A stretch of DNA of 8,797 nt, taken from IMG/VR virus record IMGVR_UViG_2531839180_000002, positions 1 to 8,797 of that record. The stretch is one strand, 5' to 3'. This DNA comes from a virus. Lineage: Duplodnaviria > Heunggongvirae > Uroviricota > Caudoviricetes. Below are positions 1,782 through 8,797 of the stretch, one piece after another (the stretch's first letter is position 1; the number at the start of each line of letters is the position of its first letter). The notes under the pieces are model-generated. The model did no database searches. It had not been told where the DNA came from and saw only the letters and a program-made list of their open reading frames with translations. The translations under genes were made by a program, and so were the position numbers.

Positions 1782-1799
1782 GAGGCAGGGAGTTTTGAT

Positions 1800-2141
1800 A
1801 TGAAACAGCAACGTAATTCACGCTTTCGTAATGGTGCTGAACGCCACGCTAACCGTTTCGCTACCAGTGCATCACGCAGCAACATCCGCTACAGCCTAAG
1901 TGATACACACGCAACGCCGGATGGCTACCCAGTAAAACAAATCGGCGAGCATGCCTGGCTGATTGAGAAAGCTGGAATCGTGGTCCACAAATGCCCACGC
2001 AATCCGTTTACTGGAAACCGCATTTTTGCTCTAAGCAGCGGCGACAATCAGTTTGGGCAGGATTTCACATTATACGAAGCGCTTCGCACGGTTGATCGTC
2101 TGCTGCGTGGGCAGAGTTTTATTAAACAGGCTGATTTATAA
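1800..2141 (+). CDS. Hypothetical early protein, 113 aa
   Basis: ATG at 1800 with GGGAG (1788-1792) 7 nt upstream, 18 nt after the cox-like stop. No motif I can assign. Confidence 0.6.
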   Translation: MKQQRNSRFRNGAERHANRFATSASRSNIRYSLSDTHATPDGYPVKQIGEHAWLIEKAGIVVHKCPRNPFTGNRIFALSSGDNQFGQDFTLYEALRTVDRLLRGQSFIKQADL

Positions 2142-2151
2142 CAGGTGCTTT

Positions 2152-2430
2152 ATGACTAAAGACCATACTCAAGGTGTATTTATCCGCTTTATTGATTCTC
2201 GCGGTGAACTGTTATTGCGTGCATCAGCTATTAATGGTGTGGCCCAGGCAAAAGACGCAACCACTCATATTTATTTGGACAGCGCCGCACAACTGATCGT
2301 GGAACTTCCGTACCAGACCGTACGAGAAATCATTAGTGAAGCTGAAAAGGCACGCCAGGCTAATGGCGATGAACCCTATATCGAAATTATTTGTATGGAT
2401 TCAGAAACTGAAATTCAGAAAGCAGATTAA
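2152..2430 (+). CDS. Hypothetical early protein, 92 aa
   Basis: ATG at 2152, 10 nt after the upstream stop. The track ORF extends upstream to 2053 but that part overlaps the preceding gene. Function unknown. Confidence 0.55.
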   Translation: MTKDHTQGVFIRFIDSRGELLLRASAINGVAQAKDATTHIYLDSAAQLIVELPYQTVREIISEAEKARQANGDEPYIEIICMDSETEIQKAD

Positions 2431-2441
2431 AGGGCGTTGCG

Positions 2442-2684
2442 ATGGGTAAAGAATATAAAACTCTCATTAACAAAGCACTTGAGCGTTTTTATTTTCGCTT
2501 AAGTGCATCAGGCGCTCATGCTGAACGTGCAGCCCGTGACTCATTGACCAGGGCAATCCGGAGTCTGTATGACGTGGCTTTTTACGCTGATGATCTGGAT
2601 GCACTTAACGAACTTTCCGAGCTGATCTGTGCCGCAGAATGCGGGGAACATATTGAACCGTATAAGCTGGGGAATATTGCATGA
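2442..2684 (+). CDS. Hypothetical early protein, 80 aa
   Basis: ATG at 2442 with AAGGG 7 nt upstream. Contains a C-x-x-E-C-G-E-H segment. Function unknown. Confidence 0.55.
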   Translation: MGKEYKTLINKALERFYFRLSASGAHAERAARDSLTRAIRSLYDVAFYADDLDALNELSELICAAECGEHIEPYKLGNIA

Positions 2685-2794
2685 GTATATTTATCTCATG
2701 GCTTGTTCTGATTATTTCGGTGGCCTGCGCCATTGGGATTATGCGAATTATTCATTCAGTAAAAAAGATTGAACGCTTTTTCACTGGCGAATAA
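2681..2794 (+). CDS. Putative small membrane peptide, 37 aa (MSIFISWLVLIISVACAIGIMRIIHSVKKIERFFTGE)
   Basis: Not in the supplied ORF track (too short). ATG 2681-2683 overlaps the upstream TGA (ATGA junction), the same coupling pattern as at 3081 and 3323. GGGGA lies 7 nt upstream. One predicted hydrophobic helix followed by a basic tail. Hand-translated, so lower confidence. Confidence 0.35.
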   Translation: MSIFISWLVLIISVACAIGIMRIIHSVKKIERFFTGE

Positions 2795-2880
2795 CAGAGC
2801 AAATAAAACCACAGGTTAAATAAGAAAATGTAAAAACAATCCGCATTCGCGGAGGTATTCGCACACGCCAAGGAGGCGTA

Positions 2881-3084
2881 ATGGCAATTAAGCATTTTCC
2901 TGTCGTTCGTTTTACCTCCAGAGGACGTGAATACGAAGTCGACGAACGCCTGATTACCACAATCGACAAACACCGTTCAGAAAAGGATGCACATCACATC
3001 TATCTCACTGACGGCACTTACTTCTGCGCCACGAATGTGGTGCGGGTGAACCTTATCCGACAGGTACAGGAGTCACGCAGATGA
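2881..3084 (+). CDS. Hypothetical early protein, 67 aa
   Basis: ATG at 2881 preceded by a strong AGGAGG (2871-2876). First gene after an 86-bp A-rich gap. Confidence 0.65.
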   Translation: MAIKHFPVVRFTSRGREYEVDERLITTIDKHRSEKDAHHIYLTDGTYFCATNVVRVNLIRQVQESRR

Positions 3085-3326
3085 CCATTCTGGACTATAT
3101 CGCCGCCAATCCGGGGTGTAGCGGTGGAGAAATCGCCGCAGCACTGAATACCCCAACCACAGCCATTAATGCGGAGTTACGCCGACTCTGGCGCAGCGGT
3201 TCAGTCATAAGAAAAGAACGCAAAACAGGCGGTCGCTTTTCTTACCAGATAAACCCGATGCCGTTCGGGTGCGGCAATCCACTTACCAACATGTTTAACC
3301 AGCTACTGAAGGAAGCCAGAGCATGA
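3081..3326 (+). CDS. Small winged-helix-type putative DNA-binding protein, 81 aa
   Basis: ATGA overlap with the upstream gene; AGGAG at 3068-3072. N-terminal segment DYIAANPGCSGGEIAAALNTPTTAINAELRRLWRSGSV has the pattern of a winged helix-turn-helix. Inference from motif appearance only. Confidence 0.6.
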   Translation: MTILDYIAANPGCSGGEIAAALNTPTTAINAELRRLWRSGSVIRKERKTGGRFSYQINPMPFGCGNPLTNMFNQLLKEARA

Positions 3327-3622
3327 GCGCCATCAACCACCAGGAATTACGCGAACTGGCGATTGACCTGCAACGAATGGCAACGCATCAAAAATTACTG
3401 GCGTTTCGCGCAATGCTCTCGCCGTCTGCCGTGCTGGCACTGCTGGATGAGCTGGAGCACGCCAGAACCATGTCTCCAGCCATTCGCCTGACGCTCCGTC
3501 ATGAAATCGAGGATTTCTGCGCGACGTTGGAGGCACCAGGCGAACCGGAAACGCCGGAAGCAATACAGAAAGAGCTGCTGCAACGCATTGACAAGGTTTT
3601 TGATTTTTTTCTGAACCACTAA
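3323..3622 (+). CDS. Hypothetical early protein, 99 aa, acidic, predicted helical
   Basis: ATGA overlap with the upstream gene. Last of three translationally coupled ORFs (2881-3622). Confidence 0.6.
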   Translation: MSAINHQELRELAIDLQRMATHQKLLAFRAMLSPSAVLALLDELEHARTMSPAIRLTLRHEIEDFCATLEAPGEPETPEAIQKELLQRIDKVFDFFLNH

Positions 3623-3691
3623 GAAACCAGAACATGCACACACAAAAAAACCGCTTGCCATGCCGCAATCAGTCAGGTTACATTTCCGCTG

Positions 3692-3739
3692 CACCTCACA
3701 AAACGGGTGCCGGGTTTCGCAGCCTGCTGACTACACAAG
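3692..3739. repeat. Direct repeat copy 1 (CACCTCACA ... GTTTCGCAGC ... CTACACAAG)
   Basis: Shares the exact 10-mer GTTTCGCAGC (3714-3723 vs 3890-3899), the exact 9-mer CTACACAAG (3731-3739 vs 3926-3934) and a CACC(T)CACA block with copy 2, in the same order but with indels. Confidence 0.5.
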
Positions 3740-3744
3740 CGCAC

Positions 3745-3765
3745 AACCGCGCCAGCGGTTTTTTT
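3745..3765 (+). terminator. Candidate intrinsic terminator (AACCGC-GCCA-GCGGTT stem-loop followed by a T7 run)
   Basis: CCGC (3747-3750) pairs with GCGG (3755-3758) around a GCCA loop, extendable by two A-T pairs, then TTTTTTT (3759-3765). The stem is short, so this may be a partial or leaky terminator. An alternative fold pairs CGCACAA (3740-3746) with TTGTGCG (3764-3770). Confidence 0.35.
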
Positions 3766-3805
3766 GTGCGTACTGTATTGCCACGTTTTTTTCGCGTCAG
3801 AATTA

Positions 3806-3883
3806 TGGCGGGGCGTACGGGGCCGACTTCGGTCGGGCCGGGTTCTTGTGTAGCCGGTACTGCGAACCTCGTACGTCTCGCCA
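3806..3883 (+). ncRNA. Candidate structured RNA element, about 78 nt: 14-bp closing helix enclosing a cUUCGg tetraloop hairpin
   Basis: 3806-3819 (TGGCGGGGCGTACG) pairs antiparallel with 3870-3883 (CGTACGTCTCGCCA) as 12 Watson-Crick plus 2 G-U pairs, valid only on the plus-strand RNA. Inside, CCGAC-TTCG-GTCGG (3823-3836) is a C(UUCG)G tetraloop hairpin, and CCGG (3838-3841) can pair with CCGG (3854-3857). No RBS-supported ORF is present. Does not fit tRNA geometry. Confidence 0.3.
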
Positions 3884-3934
3884 CCCACAGTTTCGCAGCT
3901 CTGGATGGTGAGTTTTCACAACTTACTACACAAG
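3883..3934. repeat. Direct repeat copy 2 (CACCCACA GTTTCGCAGC ... CTACACAAG)
   Basis: See copy 1. The two copies bracket the terminator-like hairpin and the structured element, about 145 bp between them. Confidence 0.5.
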
Positions 3935-3944
3935 GGGCCACACC

Positions 3945-4175
3945 ATGGCAAACCGCAAACCACACCGCGCTATCGCGGAGCGTCGTCACATCCAGACTGA
4001 AATCAACCGCAGACTTTCCCGCGCATTCCGCGTCGCTAAAATCATGCACATCAATATGCTGCATGAGCGTAGCTGCGAACTTTCAAACCTCTACTCATCC
4101 GCTGTTTTCAGTTATCTGGCGGATGATCTGCGCGAGCTTCAGCAGCTCATCCAGCAGCAAAACAAACTCCATTAA
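3945..4175 (+). CDS. Hypothetical basic protein, 76 aa
   Basis: ATG at 3945 with AAGGGG (3932-3937) 7 nt upstream. Arg/Lys-rich N-terminal half, helical C-terminus. Function unknown. Confidence 0.6.
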   Translation: MANRKPHRAIAERRHIQTEINRRLSRAFRVAKIMHINMLHERSCELSNLYSSAVFSYLADDLRELQQLIQQQNKLH

Positions 4176-4247
4176 TTCCTGTTCCGGGCCTTTCCTGCAC
4201 CTTGCGGCGGGAGGCCTTCGCACATCTGTAACAAGAGGATTGCCGCA

Positions 4248-4613
4248 ATGATTCTCGCCAACGACTTTCTTGAATACCTGCTCAACACAGAACGTGATCT
4301 TGCCGCTCGCGTGCGTGATCGTTATGACATGTACCTGAAATCCCTGCCTGTACCGCAGCTCGCTGACGGAAAAATTGTTATTGATGGTCGCTACGTGATC
4401 GACAGCCATGAGGGAAATTACAGGCTTTACCGCATTGAAGGTGGCACCCCGTCCGTTATTGGCATTTACCAGCGCCCATCCTCTGCAATCGTCGATGTGA
4501 TTGCCGACAGCATCCGCATCACACATCGCCATGCCGACACAGAAAACACCGTGCTGGAAATTCAGCGGCTGGCTACAGTCTGCCGCGACACCCTGAATGG
4601 CATGACGAAGTAA
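4248..4613 (+). CDS. Hypothetical protein, 121 aa
   Basis: ATG at 4248 with AAGAGG (4233-4238). Ends 6 nt before the start of the replication gene. Function unknown. Confidence 0.6.
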   Translation: MILANDFLEYLLNTERDLAARVRDRYDMYLKSLPVPQLADGKIVIDGRYVIDSHEGNYRLYRIEGGTPSVIGIYQRPSSAIVDVIADSIRITHRHADTENTVLEIQRLATVCRDTLNGMTK

Positions 4614-4619
4614 ATCACT

Positions 4620-7442
4620 ATGACGGCAGAGTACATCAGGGACTGGCAACAACCGCGCCACGCAGTGGGGCGTGAAGGAACGGGGATCCCCGCTCCTGAA
4701 TCCGCGCTTTCCTCCTGGCTGGATGCCTACCGGGTAGAGAACGAGCGCCGCCAGGAAATGGCTGATGCGGCGTTCTCCGCCACGCCGCTGGGCAACCTGA
4801 TTAATAAAAGCCTGGACGCACAGGAAAAACAGGACAAAACCATCACACTGGCAGGAGACGCCAGAAAACAGGCACGCGGCGCGGTGGATGAAGCCATGGC
4901 CTCGCTGCGCCTGCTGCCGTCCTATCTGCGTGATCCGCTTATTCGCCACCTCTCCTTCCTGCGCAAAAAACAGGAAGCCGATCGCCGGAAAGACAAAAAG
5001 AGCTGGCAGGCTGAACGCTACGCGCGCGGAACCCTGCGCAAAATATTCGAACGTCTGGACCGCACCGACCACCGCTGGCTGACACCGGGTTATCGCTCCC
5101 TTGCAGGACGCGAACGCCTGGATGATTTGCTTTACCTGCCGCAGCTCAACAAGCACCAGATACAGACGCTGGCCACCATGACGGCGGCGATGTTCAGCAG
5201 CACCTTCGAAAAACTCTGCGATGGCTTTGGCGCGACTGATGGCGAGCTGACCATGGATGTAACCCTGAAGGCGTATCAGATGCTGGCCCGCATGGCGTTA
5301 CACCTGCACGCCATGCCTCCGCATTATGACGCACTGACAACAGATAAAGACCGGAGGAACGAACCGGACACGGAGCTGCTGCCGGGCGCAGTCCTTCGCC
5401 TGACCTGTGCGGAATGGTGGAAACGCAAACTGTGGCTGTTACGTTGCGAGTGGAGAGAAGAACAACTCCGCGCCGCCTGTCTGGTTTCCAGAAAAACATC
5501 GCCCTATCTGAGCCAGGACGCATTAAGCGAGTTTCGCGCACAGCGCGAGAAAACACGCGATTTCCTGAAAAGTTTCATGCTGGAAAACGAAGACGGGTTC
5601 ACGATTGATCTCGAGACAGTGTATTACGCGGGAGTAAGTAACCCGGTTCACCGTAAGGCAGAAATGATGGCCACCATGAAGGGTCTGGAACTTCTGGCCG
5701 AAGCCCGTGGCGACAAAGCGGTGTTTCTGACCGTCACCTGCCCGTCAAAATACCACGCCACAACAGAGAACGGTCATCCGAATCTCAAATGGAACGGGGC
5801 CACCATGCGCGACTCCAGCGATTACCTGGTTAACACGTTTTTTGCGGCGGTCCGCAAAAAACTGAACCGCGACGGCCTGCGCTGGTATGGCATCCGCACG
5901 GTGGAGCCTCACCATGACGGCACCGTGCACTGGCACATGATGGTCTTTGCTCATCCGGAAGAAATCGACAGCATCGTGGCCATCACCCGCGATATTGCCA
6001 TTCAGGAAGACCGCCACGAGCTGGGCGATGACATAACTCCGCGTTTTAAGGCGGAGTACGTCGACGGCTCAAAAGGCACGCCAACCAGCTACATCGCCAC
6101 CTACATCGGAAAGAACCTGGACAGCCGCGCCGTGGATGGCATCGACCCGAAAACGGGCAAGCCACGCGTTGACCACGAAACCGGAAAATCAATGGCCGAG
6201 AGTGTGGAACGCGCCATCGGCTGGGCGCGCCTTCACCGGGTCCGCCAGTTCCAGTTCTTTGGCATCCCCTCCCGTCAGGTATGGCGTGAACTCCGCCGCC
6301 TTGCCAGCCAGATGGCACGCAACCCGGAAGGCCCACAACGGCTGAAGGATGATGCAATGGATGCGGTACTCGCTGCCGCTGATGCCGGGTGTTTTGCCAC
6401 CTACATTGAGAAACAGGGCGGCGTACTTGTTCCACGCAAAGACTACCTGATTCGCACCGCTTACGACCTCGCAGATGAGCTGAACGATTACGGCGAACAG
6501 AGCGTACAGATTTACGGGATCTGGTCACCACTCATCGGGGAATCCTCCCGTGTGTGCACGCACCCGGATAACTGGAAGCTGGTAAGACGTAAACCGGAAG
6601 CGGAAGACAGCGCCCGCGAAAATGGTTTTGACCTTCAGGGCGGCCCAGCCGCCCCTTGGACTCGTGGCAATAACTGTCCCCGTGTACAGGAAACGGACAA
6701 CAACGGGACAGAACAGCCGGAAGAACGGCCAGCACCGTGGTCGCAGCTCCCTGACGGCGTTGAAGTGAACGAATGGATGCGCTCACTGAAACGGCACGAA
6801 CGCCGGGCGCTGATGCGTTCGCTTCGTGACAAACAGGCAAAAAACAGCCGTGATGAAATGCAGAGCTGGACACAGAGCCGCAAACAGCAGCGGCCTTTGC
6901 CTGATAACCACGAATTACTCGCTAAAGAATGGCGGGAGTCTGCTGAATCTCTCGGCCTGCATATCGGTGAACAGCAGATGCAGCACCTGTTACGGGGCGG
7001 CAGTCTGTACGTTGACGGCAGCATCATTGCACCGCAGGGATTTGAAATTGTACGCAAGCCGGATACCCGACCGGACAGCCGGATCACGCAGCTCTGGCAG
7101 CGCCTGAGCCGTAACCACGGCGTAAGCAGCACGGAGATCCGCCATAACCCGGTCGCCAGCTATCTGGAACAGCTGGGGGCATCAGACCCCGAAGCCGCCG
7201 CACGCCTGGCATCCACACTTCAGCAAGACCAGAACACCATGAAAACACCCGTTACCGTGCTTTCTGACATGCTGCGCGCCATCCGCGACGCAGAGCACGC
7301 GCAGAGAATCAGTGAAACTGCTGAACGCGCCCGCCGCAAAGCAGACCTGCTGCGGGGTGGCCTGACCAGCGGAAACAAAAAACAGACAGAAACGGGATTC
7401 ACAAATCCCGTAAATGAGCAAAAAACGCGCCGCGATATATGA
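4620..7442 (+). CDS. A: Rolling-circle replication initiator, HUH endonuclease of the P2 gpA / phiX174 gpA family, 940 aa
   Basis: HUH metal-binding motif in EPHHDGTVHWHMMVF (HWH at 5928-5936). Paired catalytic tyrosines plus lysine in SYIATYIGKN (Tyr codons at 6090-6092 and 6102-6104), i.e. the Y-x3-Y-x2-K signature. Sits at the end of the early operon as P2 A does. Long N- and C-terminal regions flank the catalytic core. Confidence 0.9.
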   Translation: MTAEYIRDWQQPRHAVGREGTGIPAPESALSSWLDAYRVENERRQEMADAAFSATPLGNLINKSLDAQEKQDKTITLAGDARKQARGAVDEAMASLRLLPSYLRDPLIRHLSFLRKKQEADRRKDKKSWQAERYARGTLRKIFERLDRTDHRWLTPGYRSLAGRERLDDLLYLPQLNKHQIQTLATMTAAMFSSTFEKLCDGFGATDGELTMDVTLKAYQMLARMALHLHAMPPHYDALTTDKDRRNEPDTELLPGAVLRLTCAEWWKRKLWLLRCEWREEQLRAACLVSRKTSPYLSQDALSEFRAQREKTRDFLKSFMLENEDGFTIDLETVYYAGVSNPVHRKAEMMATMKGLELLAEARGDKAVFLTVTCPSKYHATTENGHPNLKWNGATMRDSSDYLVNTFFAAVRKKLNRDGLRWYGIRTVEPHHDGTVHWHMMVFAHPEEIDSIVAITRDIAIQEDRHELGDDITPRFKAEYVDGSKGTPTSYIATYIGKNLDSRAVDGIDPKTGKPRVDHETGKSMAESVERAIGWARLHRVRQFQFFGIPSRQVWRELRRLASQMARNPEGPQRLKDDAMDAVLAAADAGCFATYIEKQGGVLVPRKDYLIRTAYDLADELNDYGEQSVQIYGIWSPLIGESSRVCTHPDNWKLVRRKPEAEDSARENGFDLQGGPAAPWTRGNNCPRVQETDNNGTEQPEERPAPWSQLPDGVEVNEWMRSLKRHERRALMRSLRDKQAKNSRDEMQSWTQSRKQQRPLPDNHELLAKEWRESAESLGLHIGEQQMQHLLRGGSLYVDGSIIAPQGFEIVRKPDTRPDSRITQLWQRLSRNHGVSSTEIRHNPVASYLEQLGASDPEAAARLASTLQQDQNTMKTPVTVLSDMLRAIRDAEHAQRISETAERARRKADLLRGGLTSGNKKQTETGFTNPVNEQKTRRDI
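7376..7414. repeat. 39-bp repeat copy 1 containing the palindrome ACGGGATT-caca-AATCCCGT; lies inside the 3' end of gene A
   Basis: Matches copy 2 at 32 of 39 positions. Palindrome arms at 7392-7399 and 7404-7411. Confidence 0.55.
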
Positions 7443-7448
7443 AGCGCG

Positions 7449-7487
7449 CACAAAACAGGCAAAAACGGGATTTCAGAATCCCGTAAA
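7449..7487. promoter_or_regulatory. 39-bp repeat copy 2 containing the palindrome ACGGGATT-tcag-AATCCCGT; candidate parC-like centromere/operator overlapping a putative parM promoter
   Basis: Palindrome arms at 7465-7472 and 7477-7484. A possible -35 TTCAGA (7472-7477) and -10 ATTAAT (7494-7499) with 16-bp spacing would place the palindrome over the -35. In the plasmid R1 parMRC system, ParR binds repeats that overlap the par promoter. Confidence 0.45.
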
Positions 7488-7518
7488 CGATTAATTAATC
7501 AACATAAGGAAAAGCGAC

Positions 7519-8478
7519 ATGAAAATTTGTATCGACGACGGCTCCACCAACATCAAGCTGGCATGGACTGAGAACGGCGAACGCCGCAACGCCATCAGCC
7601 CGAACAGCTTCAAGTCGGAATGGTCTGCGCCGTTCGGCGGCACGCAGCCCGCGAACTACATGCTTGATGGCGTGCGCTATGGTTTTGATCCGGTCAGCGA
7701 TCGCTTTGTCCAGACGACCGACACGCAATACCAGTACAGCGATGTGAATGTCATTGCCATTCATCACGCGCTGGTCAAATCAGGCATCACGCCACAGGAG
7801 GTGGATGTGGTTGTCACCCTGCCACTGAGCGAGTATTTCGACACAAACGCACAGCCGGACATGGCCAACATCAACCGCAAAAAAGCGAACGTTATGCGCC
7901 CGGTGGAGTACCAGAACGGCGAAGCATTCACTATCCGTAACGTACGGGTTATGCCTGAATCCATTCCGGCTGGCTTTAAGGCACTGGCTGACATGAGTCC
8001 GTTTGAATCCCTGCTGATTGTGGATTTAGGCGGAACCACGCTGGATGTGGCAAAGGTTCAGGGACAACTGGCAGGCATCAGCCAGGTGTTTTGCGATCCA
8101 CACGTAGGCGTTTCCCTGATGGCCGATGCCGTACTGTCGGTGATGGCCACTAACGGTATGCGTACCAGTCACCATATCGCCAGTACCATTATCGAACATC
8201 GCCACGATGAAGCCTGGTTGCACCAGCACATCCACAATGACGCGCATTACGCCAGCCTGATGGCGGTTATTCGTGAAAAGGAAGAAACACTGAAACAACG
8301 CGTGATCCGCGCGCTGGCGGGTTTTTCGGGTTACGGGCGGGTGATGGTTGTCGGTGGAGGGGCAGAAATTGTGGCACCCGCTATCCGCGAAGCCTGCGGT
8401 GTTAATGCGACTTTCATCGCGGACGGGGTGCCACAGTTTGCTCTGGTTAATGGGCTGTACGCAATGGACAAGGAGTAA
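7519..8478 (+). CDS. parM: Actin-like segregation ATPase ParM/StbA, 319 aa
   Basis: ATG at 7519 with AAGGA 8 nt upstream. Actin-fold signatures are visible: phosphate-1 DDGSTNIKL at the N-terminus, phosphate-2 IVDLGGTTLDV, adenosine motif VVGGGAE. Colinear resemblance to plasmid R1 ParM along the whole length, as I recall that sequence. Confidence 0.9.
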   Translation: MKICIDDGSTNIKLAWTENGERRNAISPNSFKSEWSAPFGGTQPANYMLDGVRYGFDPVSDRFVQTTDTQYQYSDVNVIAIHHALVKSGITPQEVDVVVTLPLSEYFDTNAQPDMANINRKKANVMRPVEYQNGEAFTIRNVRVMPESIPAGFKALADMSPFESLLIVDLGGTTLDVAKVQGQLAGISQVFCDPHVGVSLMADAVLSVMATNGMRTSHHIASTIIEHRHDEAWLHQHIHNDAHYASLMAVIREKEETLKQRVIRALAGFSGYGRVMVVGGGAEIVAPAIREACGVNATFIADGVPQFALVNGLYAMDKE

Positions 8479-8482
8479 ACCA

Positions 8483-8797
8483 ATGAGGTCACCAACCAGA
8501 CGGATAAGTTTCTATCTGAAGCCAGCCGCCGTCAAGAGTGAACAGGAGGCGTGCAATTACCTCGACAACCTGCCAGCCTCGGAACGCAGCCGCGCACAAC
8601 GCGCGGCCTTTCTGGCGGGACTGGCACTCATAAAACGTGCCCCCGCACTGGCGTATTCGCTGGCAGAATGGTCAGAAGACGAAATACGGATGCCATCGCT
8701 GCCAGTGCAGCCTGAAAAACAGGCGCAACCAGCAACAGCCAGCGCCACCCCTATGCAGCAGGTGAAAAAGAATATTCAGGCGTTTTTTCCAGAATAA
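8483..8797 (+). CDS. parR: Partition adaptor ParR/StbB (ribbon-helix-helix centromere-binding protein), 104 aa
   Basis: ATG at 8483, 4 nt after the parM stop, with AGGAG (8471-8475). N-terminal region RRISFYLKPAAV...LPASERSRAQRAAFLAGLAL parallels R1 ParR (TIAFKLNPDV...IPQGERSRLNRAALTAGLAL). Ends with TAA at the last base of the window; the track ORF starts upstream at 8348 inside parM. Confidence 0.85.
   Translation: MRSPTRRISFYLKPAAVKSEQEACNYLDNLPASERSRAQRAAFLAGLALIKRAPALAYSLAEWSEDEIRMPSLPVQPEKQAQPATASATPMQQVKKNIQAFFPE

Follow-up and report, generated by a model that had tools for sequence, protein, structure and literature searches.

The gene analyzed here raised the question of why a P2-type replication initiator carried so much sequence beyond its catalytic domain, and whether the additional sequence was tied to the partition genes located immediately downstream. 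The window (the whole stretch of viral DNA that was analyzed, 8,797 nucleotides) contained a plus-strand ORF at positions 4620 to 7442, which was listed as the gpA replication initiator CDS and encoded 940 amino acids followed by a stop codon. A sequence-only reading had described the product as an unusually long gpA with extended, highly charged flanks and had proposed that the extra residues might form a host-factor interaction domain or couple replication to partition. As described below, we consider it highly likely that the ORF encodes the usual rolling-circle initiator, gpA, of a P88-like Escherichia coli prophage (Xuanwuvirus, P2 family) in the integrated state, with the origin inside the gene, an accessory tail, and last codons derived from parMR. 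The features of the locus are listed in Table 1.

The family assignment was straightforward. The Pfam profile Phage_GPA (PF05840) was matched over all of its 321 positions with 434.3 bits (cut-off, 31.4; E = 3.3e-130), phrog_91 ("nicking at origin of replication") aligned end to end with the 940-aa protein, and the protein shared 97 to 98% amino acid identity with the annotated replication endonucleases of P88 and Shae_phiSM. The HUH motif (HWH, residues 437 to 439) and the Y-x3-Y-x2-K motif (YIATYIGK, residues 491 to 498) were found where the first reading had placed them, at about residues 430 to 500. Moreover, H437-W-H439, Y491, and Y495 were invariant in 17 homologues, including P2, in which the tyrosines are Y450 and Y454. 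When the full-length AlphaFold model was compared to the PDB with Foldseek, the best matches (ISDra2 TnpA, parvovirus NS1, AAV Rep, and Helitron) were all HUH nucleases; these matches were weak (E values of 0.005 to 0.1) and the model was of low confidence (mean pLDDT of 54.8). A sequence search of the PDB with the whole protein gave no relevant match, neither the full-length sequence nor its two flanks corresponded to an NCBIfam family, and a literature search on Xuanwuvirus returned nothing on gpA. The gene is routinely annotated as a replication endonuclease.

Positions 1790 to 8680 of the window showed 94 to 97% nucleotide identity to, and the same gene order as, P88, P884B11, and related phages. 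Based on this identity and synteny, which concern the early region only, the window is assigned to Xuanwuvirus (P88-like Peduoviridae). The proposal that the protein was unusually long did not hold, because forms of 940 to 946 aa with the same termini were annotated in P88, P884B11, and Shae_phiSM, and gpA homologs of at least 900 aa with these termini proved to be common. The long-form protein clusters contained 707, 203, 16,881, and 3,025 member sequences. Tail DNA was present in 1,368 of 5,426 complete E. coli genomes (25%), where 1,527 of its 1,529 places were chromosomal, and nearly all copies were integrated prophages. The finding of a long initiator is of small importance in itself, as roughly one in four complete E. 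coli genomes carries this routine gene.

Table 1. Features of the gpA-parMR locus (window positions)
Feature	Position	Strand	Basis or remark
N-terminal variable module, residues 1 to ~101	4620..4922	+	Allele comparison, dN
Phage_GPA catalytic (HUH) domain, residues 179-503	5154..6128	+	Pfam, motifs
HUH codons	5928-5936	+	Motif
Y491-x3-Y495-x2-K498 codons	6090-6113	+	Motif
Acidic, proline-rich linker around and after ori, residues ~660-745	6598..6854	+	pLDDT, variability
Putative origin of replication island, codons 677-687 (AAPWTRGNNCP)	6648..6680	+	P2 nick-site homology, synonymous conservation
Conserved C-terminal domain, residues ~760-870, ~110 aa	6897..7229	+	Tail-only AlphaFold, dN/dS
Clade-specific long alpha-helix, residues ~876-911	7245..7352	+	AlphaFold, relatives
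Junction/cassette-derived last 29 codons + stop, residues 912-940	7353..7442	+	Relatives' divergence point, L008 ORF
parC-like repeat 1 (palindrome 7392-7411)	7376..7417	.	Inside last gpA codons
parC-like repeat 2 (palindrome 7465-7484)	7449..7490	.	Intergenic, 29 nt upstream of parM start
parM, actin-like segregation ATPase	7519..8478	+	Pfam StbA_N 1.7e-82, ParM C-terminal domain 6.6e-68
parR/stbB-like adaptor, 104 aa + stop, ends at window edge	8483..8797	+	Pfam Plasmid_stab_B 3.6e-25

One short island within the gene stood out at the DNA level. Third-codon-position identity in the island was 0.95, the maximum of the gene, versus a gene mean of 0.36. The 30 nt at 6651 to 6680 were identical in 6/6 non-P2 relatives compared, and the GCC codon at 6648 to 6650 was kept in all of these except the Fels-2-type cores (Fels-2 and the chimera L013, which had TGC). 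In addition, positions 6636 to 6697 were the sole part of the gene that matched distant Klebsiella P2-like phages via megablast. The counterpart of the P2 nick site falls within the island, at about 6658, and the P2 record annotates a "nick site at ori" inside A, in homologous codons. By homology, therefore, the 33-nt island is the predicted origin of P88-type phages, with a nick near 6658. The P2 A protein makes a site-specific single-strand nick, becomes covalently attached to the 5' end, acts in cis, and depends on the host Rep helicase. By analogy with P2 A, the HUH/two-tyrosine domain would nick one strand at the origin in its own gene and would then be covalently linked to the DNA via a tyrosine, after which host enzymes would perform rolling-circle synthesis. 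The island also serves as the point at which divergent gpA cores and tails recombine: L013 combined a strongly divergent, Fels-2-like core (dS of about 2) with a P88-like tail (dS of 0.03 to 0.18), and the switch fell at the island.

An origin inside the gene raises the possibility that selection has preserved the post-origin region chiefly at the DNA level, for cis-acting origin-auxiliary sequence such as binding sites or an unwinding element, and that the peptide is dispensable. The textbook cis action of P2 A and its site-specific nick at ori fit such an arrangement, and the tail by construction always accompanies the 3' flank of the origin. However, high synonymous-site conservation was limited to the 33-nt island, and the tail had a dS similar to that of the core with a low dN/dS. 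No iterons, significant repeats, or inverted repeats were found near the origin or across the DNA that encodes the tail (6450 to 7380), and the single-strand fold at 6610 to 6720 was not unusual (z = -0.74). Whole tails were also exchanged on the same core in two relatives (L008 and L012). We regard conservation as DNA as quite improbable.

The substitution patterns pointed to the peptide instead. Residues 745 to 912 had dN/dS values that were mostly 0.0 to 0.38, and the tail is under purifying selection. The tail-only AlphaFold model (mean pLDDT of 75) contained a domain of two helices, a three-stranded sheet, and further helices, with a dN/dS of 0.00 to 0.38 among close relatives; P2 and Fels-2 aligned solely to its first half. 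The long helix that follows was common to the P88-type lineage and a Hafnia relative, and its dN/dS was 0.08 to 0.35 versus E. coli and Salmonella relatives and 0.64 versus the Hafnia relative. The linker between the catalytic core and the domain had a dN/dS above those of neighboring segments and differed in sequence and length among relatives. In the full-length model, its pLDDT was below 50 at residues 660 to 706 and 736 to 757 and 61 to 65 in blocks 711 to 730, with a helix modeled at 716 to 752. The linker is probably flexible or disordered, and this reading is soft because the full-length model was poor. In terms of composition, the C-terminal 300 residues were indeed rich in Arg, Glu, and Gln (27.3%; catalytic domain, 16.3%; whole protein, 22.1%), but "highly charged" was an overstatement because charged residues accounted for 30% versus 26.8%. 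Likewise, the tail was not purely helical or disordered, since the AlphaFold models placed a small three-stranded sheet at about residues 796 to 814.

The C-terminal domain, which was conserved across several gpA lineages, matched no Pfam or NCBIfam family, and Foldseek searches of the PDB and BFVD with the tail model yielded no match with an E value below 0.04. A search of 1.84 billion representatives with the tail returned only 22 matches, and the credible ones were all gpA C termini. Among the 22 was a 2,998-aa protein with cadherin repeats (P0146), which was set aside as an artefact of those repeats. When the tail and its alignment were used in word-indexed searches, the matches were mostly contig-end fragments. 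The accessory domain may bind a replisome partner or origin-flanking DNA; because no relatives of it were detected by structure or by family, this role is a guess. It may also act as the host-factor interaction domain proposed in the first reading. With its roughly 110 conserved residues, its lack of a family or structural assignment, and its occurrence in a highly abundant phage protein, the domain is a reasonable experimental target.

The N-terminal flank had also been described as extended. This was not so relative to Fels-2, in which the catalytic tyrosine is at residue 503 (491 here). The N-terminal end was variable, with two alleles among close relatives: dN was about 0.9 in this module versus L010 to L012, and the core dN was 0.03. 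DNA homology to L011 began at 4923, and the ORFs upstream of gpA were 22% identical. Hence, the module was swapped jointly with the upstream 121-aa ORF (4248 to 4613).

Downstream of gpA, the ParM and ParR-like adaptor genes (the parR start was inferred from the P88 annotation) and the repeats upstream of parM correspond to a type II ParMRC partition system, for which ParR binding and segregation are predicted from the sequence. Each of the two 42-nt direct repeats contained a palindrome, ACGGGATT-N4-AATCCCGT, and none of 200 shuffles reached that number of palindrome matches. As the first reading had noted, the final gpA codons overlapped the first repeat, and the gpA stop fell between both palindromes. 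The repeats lie 73 bp apart, and both they and this spacing were conserved in three relatives (L009, L010, and L013). A sigma-70 scan between the repeats detected no promoter. Both palindromes were scored as minus-strand terminator-like hairpins, a number that was not above that in shuffles (2 versus 0.9 +/- 1.0).

Comparisons with relatives suggested where gpA proper ends. Two relatives without parMR (L005 and L007) kept the tail, including the long helix, to about residue 911 but diverged from about position 7353 onward and carried other cargo. In L008, parMR followed a gpA tail of another type and an unrelated 155-aa ORF, and this ORF ended in the same 21 residues, KQT(K/E)TGFTNPVNEQKTRRDI. 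The gpA genes of the Hafnia relative and L013 used other frames and stopped within or at palindrome 1, which gave three different stop positions and frames relative to this palindrome. Residues 912 to 940, which had a pLDDT below 50 and were predicted to be disordered, are thus foreign to gpA proper, and the last 21 residues correspond to the left edge of the parMR cassette. Published work describes the interval between gpA and gpQ as a hotspot, in which roughly one in four E. coli P2-like phages carries a partition system (PMC9122126). The parMR cassette is one of many alternative cargoes in this gpA-portal hotspot, and the last 29 residues would arise from the ORF reading over the left edge of the cassette. 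Because the cassette boundary lies there, the overlap with repeat 1 would be a by-product rather than a coupling device. The gpA 3' end would be the physical left border of the hotspot, with the final codons and the stop contributed by the cargo, which would account for the length classes of 910, 916, 925, and 940 aa. The 925-aa variant differed by one A in the A6 run at 7376 to 7382. Programmed frameshifting at this run was considered and rejected, since there was no canonical in-frame slippery heptamer and the variant came from a single read-assembly.

The foreign origin of the last 29 codons, together with the separate 155-aa ORF at the equivalent position in L008, could also be taken to mean that gpA and a downstream small gene were joined artefactually or recently into the 940-aa ORF, whether by frameshifting, stop loss, or an error in sequencing. 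This idea is barely credible, because the same 940- to 946-aa frame was present in thousands of independent sequences and in several phage isolates. Furthermore, residues 745 to 911 were never a separate gene in the relatives examined; they were contiguous with the core and under purifying selection.

The remaining question was whether the C-terminal extension couples replication to ParMR, either by binding ParR or ParM or because the end of gpA is translated across ParR site 1. The position of the stop between the palindromes is consistent with this idea, as is the distribution of the tail: in complete E. coli genomes, the parMR junction adjoined about 96% of the P88-type tails, with at least 80% of the tail query in 1,357 genomes and at least 80% of the junction query in 1,299. 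The linkage is therefore strong and may reflect a functional tie. The helix at residues 876 to 911 was observed in no lineage other than the P88-type one with its Hafnia relative, where most members carry parMR, and the chimera L013 had the tail and parMR together. Several relatives contradicted the proposal, however. The tail was retained with a dN/dS of 0.09 to 0.25 in L005 and L007, which carry other hotspot cargo, and the conserved tail domain was present in the 841-aa gpA of phage L017, which has no parMR downstream. Conversely, the parMR genes of L008 follow another tail and ORF. The predicted disorder of residues 912 to 940 and the integrated state of nearly all copies also argue against coupling. 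Since the last 21 residues are the edge of the cassette and the repeat is read in other frames elsewhere, a coupling role is poorly supported, and we consider it very unlikely. A more far-reaching idea, to which we give very little credence, is that the folded domain and helix form a specificity module co-inherited with the origin, tethering gpA to its own template or recruiting the host helicase, and that, in P88-type phages, translation of the last codons through ParR site 1 ties the expression of gpA to a derepressed parM promoter. If true, an integrated P2-like prophage would gain a replication-coupled partition step after excision.

The locus was also compared with known systems. P88 (YP_009113059.1, 940 aa) and Citrobacter phage Shae_phiSM, both of the genus Xuanwuvirus, had the same gpA start and stop with a few amino acid substitutions and the same neighbors (a small upstream ORF, and parM and parR downstream); the integrase/repressor/cox module of the window (1 to about 1790) had no megablast match in their records. 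Plasmid ParMRC loci, such as parM-parR or stbA-stbB of R1/NR1, resembled the prophage locus in having the ParM and Plasmid_stab_B families and repeats upstream of parM, and an IncL/M plasmid locus also had two upstream repeats 73 bp apart. The prophage locus differed in its location in an integrated prophage and in having only two palindrome-bearing repeats, one of which was within the preceding gene. Its parM was about 67% identical in DNA to plasmid homologues, and this coding DNA was the only part that plasmid parMRC loci matched; the repeats were unrelated in sequence, and no parC homology was detected.

Fels-2 gpA-like protein (YP_001718753.1, 809 aa) and Klebsiella P2-like phages were 42 to 46% identical to the 940-aa protein through residue ~796. 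The NNC motif of Fels-2 was at residue 684, the same number as here, but only 123 residues followed the origin motif versus 254 in the 940-aa protein. Thus, practically all of the length added relative to Fels-2 was post-origin. In the case of P2, the A protein is shorter, as the first reading had stated (about 760 aa); the record gives 761 aa (NP_046795.1), 179 aa less. P2 gpA belongs to the same Pfam family, with about 32% identity, and has the same HUH (at residue 399) and Y-x3-Y-x2-K (Y450/Y454) motifs. The difference in length was made up of 41 residues on the N-terminal side of the tyrosines, 19 from there to the origin, and 119 beyond it. P2 retained the first half of the tail domain, and what it lacked beyond the origin included the rest of that domain as well as the long helix. 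The P2 hotspot carries orf91, tin, and old as cargo rather than parMR, and the P2 origin and nick site are likewise encoded in A, in homologous ..AAP..NNC codons.

The window came from a P2-family prophage in its integrated state and spanned the early region. From about position 1790 onward, its DNA was 94 to 97% identical to that of Escherichia phage P88, Xuanwuvirus P884B11, Citrobacter phage Shae_phiSM, and relatives, and the P88-type phage records annotated a "replication endonuclease" of identical length (940 aa), with parM and a partition protein next in order. Several E. coli chromosomes matched the full window length at 96%. Positions 1 to 1790 (integrase, repressor, and cox module) matched nothing in the phage collection by megablast, but several E. 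coli chromosomes carried them at 96% identity; they are thus an immunity/integration module that is absent from the sequenced P88-type phage isolates. P88-like genes, including those for a 946-aa gpA, parMR (parM and parR), and terminase, were also present in the 9.3-kb stretch examined of NZ_CP148288.1, a 34,461-bp circular "plasmid" in E. coli from a cat. The record is about as large as P88 (34.5 versus 35.8 kb), which suggests a complete phage genome; an episomal state, excision, and an assembly artefact are all conceivable explanations. Two of the approximately 1,530 places of gpA tail DNA in E. coli were plasmid borne.

Features of the window and cargo of three relatives' loci (L005, L007, and L011), each in the coordinates of its own sequence
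Sequence	Feature	Position	Strand	Remarks
Window	Integrase	1-1023	minus	
Window	C-type repressor	1057-1374	minus	
Window	cox-like gene, then several small ORFs	between C-type repressor and gpA		
Window	isrK Hfq-binding sRNA and C4 antisense RNA	3691-3765 and 3801-3888	plus	Rfam
Window	"Derepression protein" ORF, 76 aa	3945-4175		directly downstream of the adjoining isrK/C4 RNAs
Window	gpA ORF, 940 aa	4620-7442	plus	Pfam Phage_GPA match
Window	42-nt direct repeat	7376-7417		in last gpA codons; palindrome ACGGGATT-N4-AATCCCGT
Window	42-nt direct repeat	7449-7490		intergenic; same palindrome
Window	parM	7519-8478		
Window	parR/stbB-like gene	8483-8797		
L005	Cargo	6779-9306	minus	three genes of unassigned kind (269, 112, and 459 aa)
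L007	Cargo	6932-10302	plus	AAA ATPase and S8 peptidase, in place of parMR
L011	Cargo	8557-10826	plus	AAA ATPase and S8 peptidase, after parMR

The isrK and C4 RNAs scored 64 bits (gathering threshold, 50) and 83 bits (gathering threshold, 45), respectively. A 205-aa ORF (3634-4251), which is called a "transcriptional regulator" in NC_049391, overlapped both RNAs and looks spurious. This region suggests an antirepressor-like gene under RNA-based control in a P2-family prophage. Immediately before gpA, a 121-aa upstream ORF and the first 101 or so gpA codons (4248-4922) behaved as one exchangeable module: relatives in which the remaining gene was 94% identical carried a 129-aa upstream ORF (22% identity) and an unrelated gpA N terminus, and DNA homology to them began at 4923.

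The sequence-only reading had described gpA as an unusually long initiator with extended, highly charged flanks. The claimed ORF, length, and motifs were all confirmed (Phage_GPA at residues 179 to 503 in Pfam, H437-W-H439, and Y491-IAT-Y495-IG-K498), and the length of about 760 aa given there for P2 A agreed with the 761 aa of the P2 record. The protein was not unusual for its length, as forms of 940 to 946 aa were common, which is the kind of finding that the sequence-only reading had itself named as refuting it. Specifically, the full-coverage clusters of such proteins held 707, 203, 16,881, and 3,025 member sequences, and the DNA encoding the tail (the post-origin C-terminal part; 6837-7355) was present at an identity of at least 90% in 1,368 of 5,426 complete E. 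coli genomes, where it was chromosomal at 1,527 of 1,529 places. Lengths among relatives were 761 (P2), 761 to 765 (Salmonella), 809 (Fels-2), 830, 841, 872 to 879, 910 to 916, and 925 to 946 aa. Based on these cluster sizes, prevalence, and lengths, the window gpA is among the longest in a continuous, modular series of lengths and is the standard form for the genus.

Extra residues were located with three landmarks: the catalytic tyrosines, a conserved NNC motif, and the C terminus. Relative to P2, the window gpA had 41 more residues before the tyrosines, 19 more between the tyrosines and NNC, and 119 more after NNC; relative to Fels-2, the differences were 12 fewer, 12 more, and 131 more. 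These counts indicated that the N-terminal flank was not extended and that essentially all of the excess over Fels-2 was past NNC. The composition described for the tail was borne out only mildly: Arg, Glu, and Gln made up 27% of the last 300 residues versus 16% of the catalytic domain, and charged residues made up 30% versus 27%. The observation itself was confirmed, but what it describes is ordinary and had been annotated before; what the analysis adds is the internal anatomy of gpA, namely, the position of a predicted origin, a modular tail, and a cassette-derived C terminus.

In the P2 record, the ori nick site is annotated within gene A, in the codons for AAPRSPVNNC, which were homologous to window AAPWTRGNNC (residues 677 to 686). 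When the window was aligned by codon with P2, Fels-2, a Hafnia relative, and others, window positions 6651 to 6680 (CC CCT TGG ACT CGT GGC AAT AAC TGT CCC preceded by G) were identical in all six non-P2 sequences, and the GCC codon at 6648-6650 was common to all of these but the Fels-2-type cores, which had TGC. Third-position identity reached its gene maximum in the 10-codon window from residue 677 (0.95 versus a gene-wide mean of 0.36), and distant Klebsiella P2-like phages had a megablast match within gpA only at 6636-6697. From the homology to the P2 site and this conservation, we infer that 6648-6680 is the probable origin and that the predicted nick is close to 6658. The same 33-nt island was a recombination junction in the chimeric gpA of L013 (a Logan ERR2749070 contig; gene at 4001-6778). 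There, a Fels-2-like core that was highly divergent from the window (dS about 2) was joined exactly at the island to a P88-type tail (dS 0.03 to 0.18 versus the window), parMR included, and the early region was 186/Fels-2-like.

The full-length AlphaFold model was poor (mean pLDDT, 54.8; residues 660 to 706 and 736 to 757, around and after the origin, below 50). A tail-only model of residues 740 to 912 had a mean pLDDT of 75 and consisted of two helices, a three-stranded sheet, four further helices, and a long terminal helix. For residues 745 to 794, 795 to 875, and 876 to 912, dN/dS was 0.00 to 0.38 against the close relatives L001, L002, L005, L007, L010, and L011, which indicated purifying selection on the tail protein sequence. 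It is unlikely that the tail-coding sequence acts purely as DNA, since elevated synonymous-site conservation was restricted to the 33-nt island, and a search for iterons and special structure found none.

An exhaustive tail search across 1.84 billion representative proteins yielded only 22 matches, and the credible ones were all gpA C termini or fragments. The homologues defined a conserved, roughly 110-aa domain (..LG-x-x-L-S-x-x-Q-L-x-x-L-L-R-G-G..R-R-K-D..W..H..I-R-x-D-P-V-G-x-Y..), and P2 and Fels-2 aligned to its first half only. The helix at 876-911 was clade specific, being common only to the window type and the Hafnia relative. No Pfam, NCBIfam, PDB-sequence, or Foldseek match gave the tail a function. 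Some "replication proteins" of 340 to 345 aa, from Enterobacter mori (L015/L016, 5001-6023) and Klebsiella aerogenes (P0161), were gpA 3' remnants with the origin motif and tail domain. In both E. mori loci, the remnant was near an ogr-family gene, with genes for aldose-epimerase and glyceraldehyde-3-phosphate dehydrogenase on either side, and the surroundings resemble a decayed P2-like prophage.

P2 A nicks DNA, becomes covalently attached to it, and initiates rolling-circle replication. As a member of the same family, the window gpA would nick the origin inside its own gene, would be attached via Tyr491 or Tyr495, and would prime rolling-circle replication with host enzymes. Because the tail domain is small, folded, constrained, without catalytic motifs, and swapped as a unit together with the 3' flank of the origin, it would most plausibly be an accessory module that binds a replisome partner (e.g., host helicase) or origin-flanking duplex DNA.

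The tail had also been proposed to couple replication to the downstream partition cassette. The two did co-occur almost constantly (at a coverage of at least 80%, the tail was in 1,357 complete E. coli genomes and the tail-parM junction was in 1,299), as shared ancestry within a single genus would predict. However, the tail was under selection in L005 and L007, which lack parMR, and parMR was behind other upstream ORFs in L008. Moreover, the 841-aa gpA of L017 contained the 110-aa domain although the hotspot there had no partition genes, and the peptide overlapping the repeat varied in frame. Coupling therefore seemed very improbable.

The gpA-portal interval is a variable-cargo hotspot of P2-like phages, and about a quarter of those in E. 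coli have a putative partition system there (PMC9122126). Comparison of relatives shows that the last 29 gpA codons are cargo derived and not part of gpA itself and that the gpA 3' end is the hotspot border. In L005 and L007 (910-aa and 916-aa gpA, respectively), the tail was retained to about residue 911, divergence began at about nt 7353, and unrelated cargo followed gpA. This cargo, like that of L011, probably comprises defence systems. L008 had a 876-aa gpA with a different tail and then an unrelated zinc-finger-like 155-aa ORF, whose last 21 residues (KQTKTGFTNPVNEQKTRRDI) were those of the window gpA; the repeats and parMR followed as in the window. In the AlphaFold model, gpA residues 912 to 940 had a pLDDT below 50.

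As the sequence-only reading had noticed, the final gpA codons overlapped the first palindromic repeat. The gpA stop was a TGA within the palindrome 1 spacer in Hafnia, a TAA at the palindrome's end (in a different frame) in L013, and 31 nt (stop codon included) beyond palindrome 1 in the window, which indicated that the repeat was kept as DNA while the frame across it varied. On the minus strand, 7392-7411 and 7465-7484 formed 8-bp hairpins followed by T-rich tracts, with intrinsic-terminator-like scores; their count showed no excess over shuffles. The hairpins might also shield gpA from antisense transcription coming from the hotspot. Two such palindrome sites occurred in none of 200 shuffles, and the 73-bp repeat spacing was kept in all parMR-bearing relatives. 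The repeats fit a candidate parC/ParR operator; although their sequence is unrelated, two repeats with the same 73-bp spacing also lie upstream of parM at the locus of an IncL/M plasmid.
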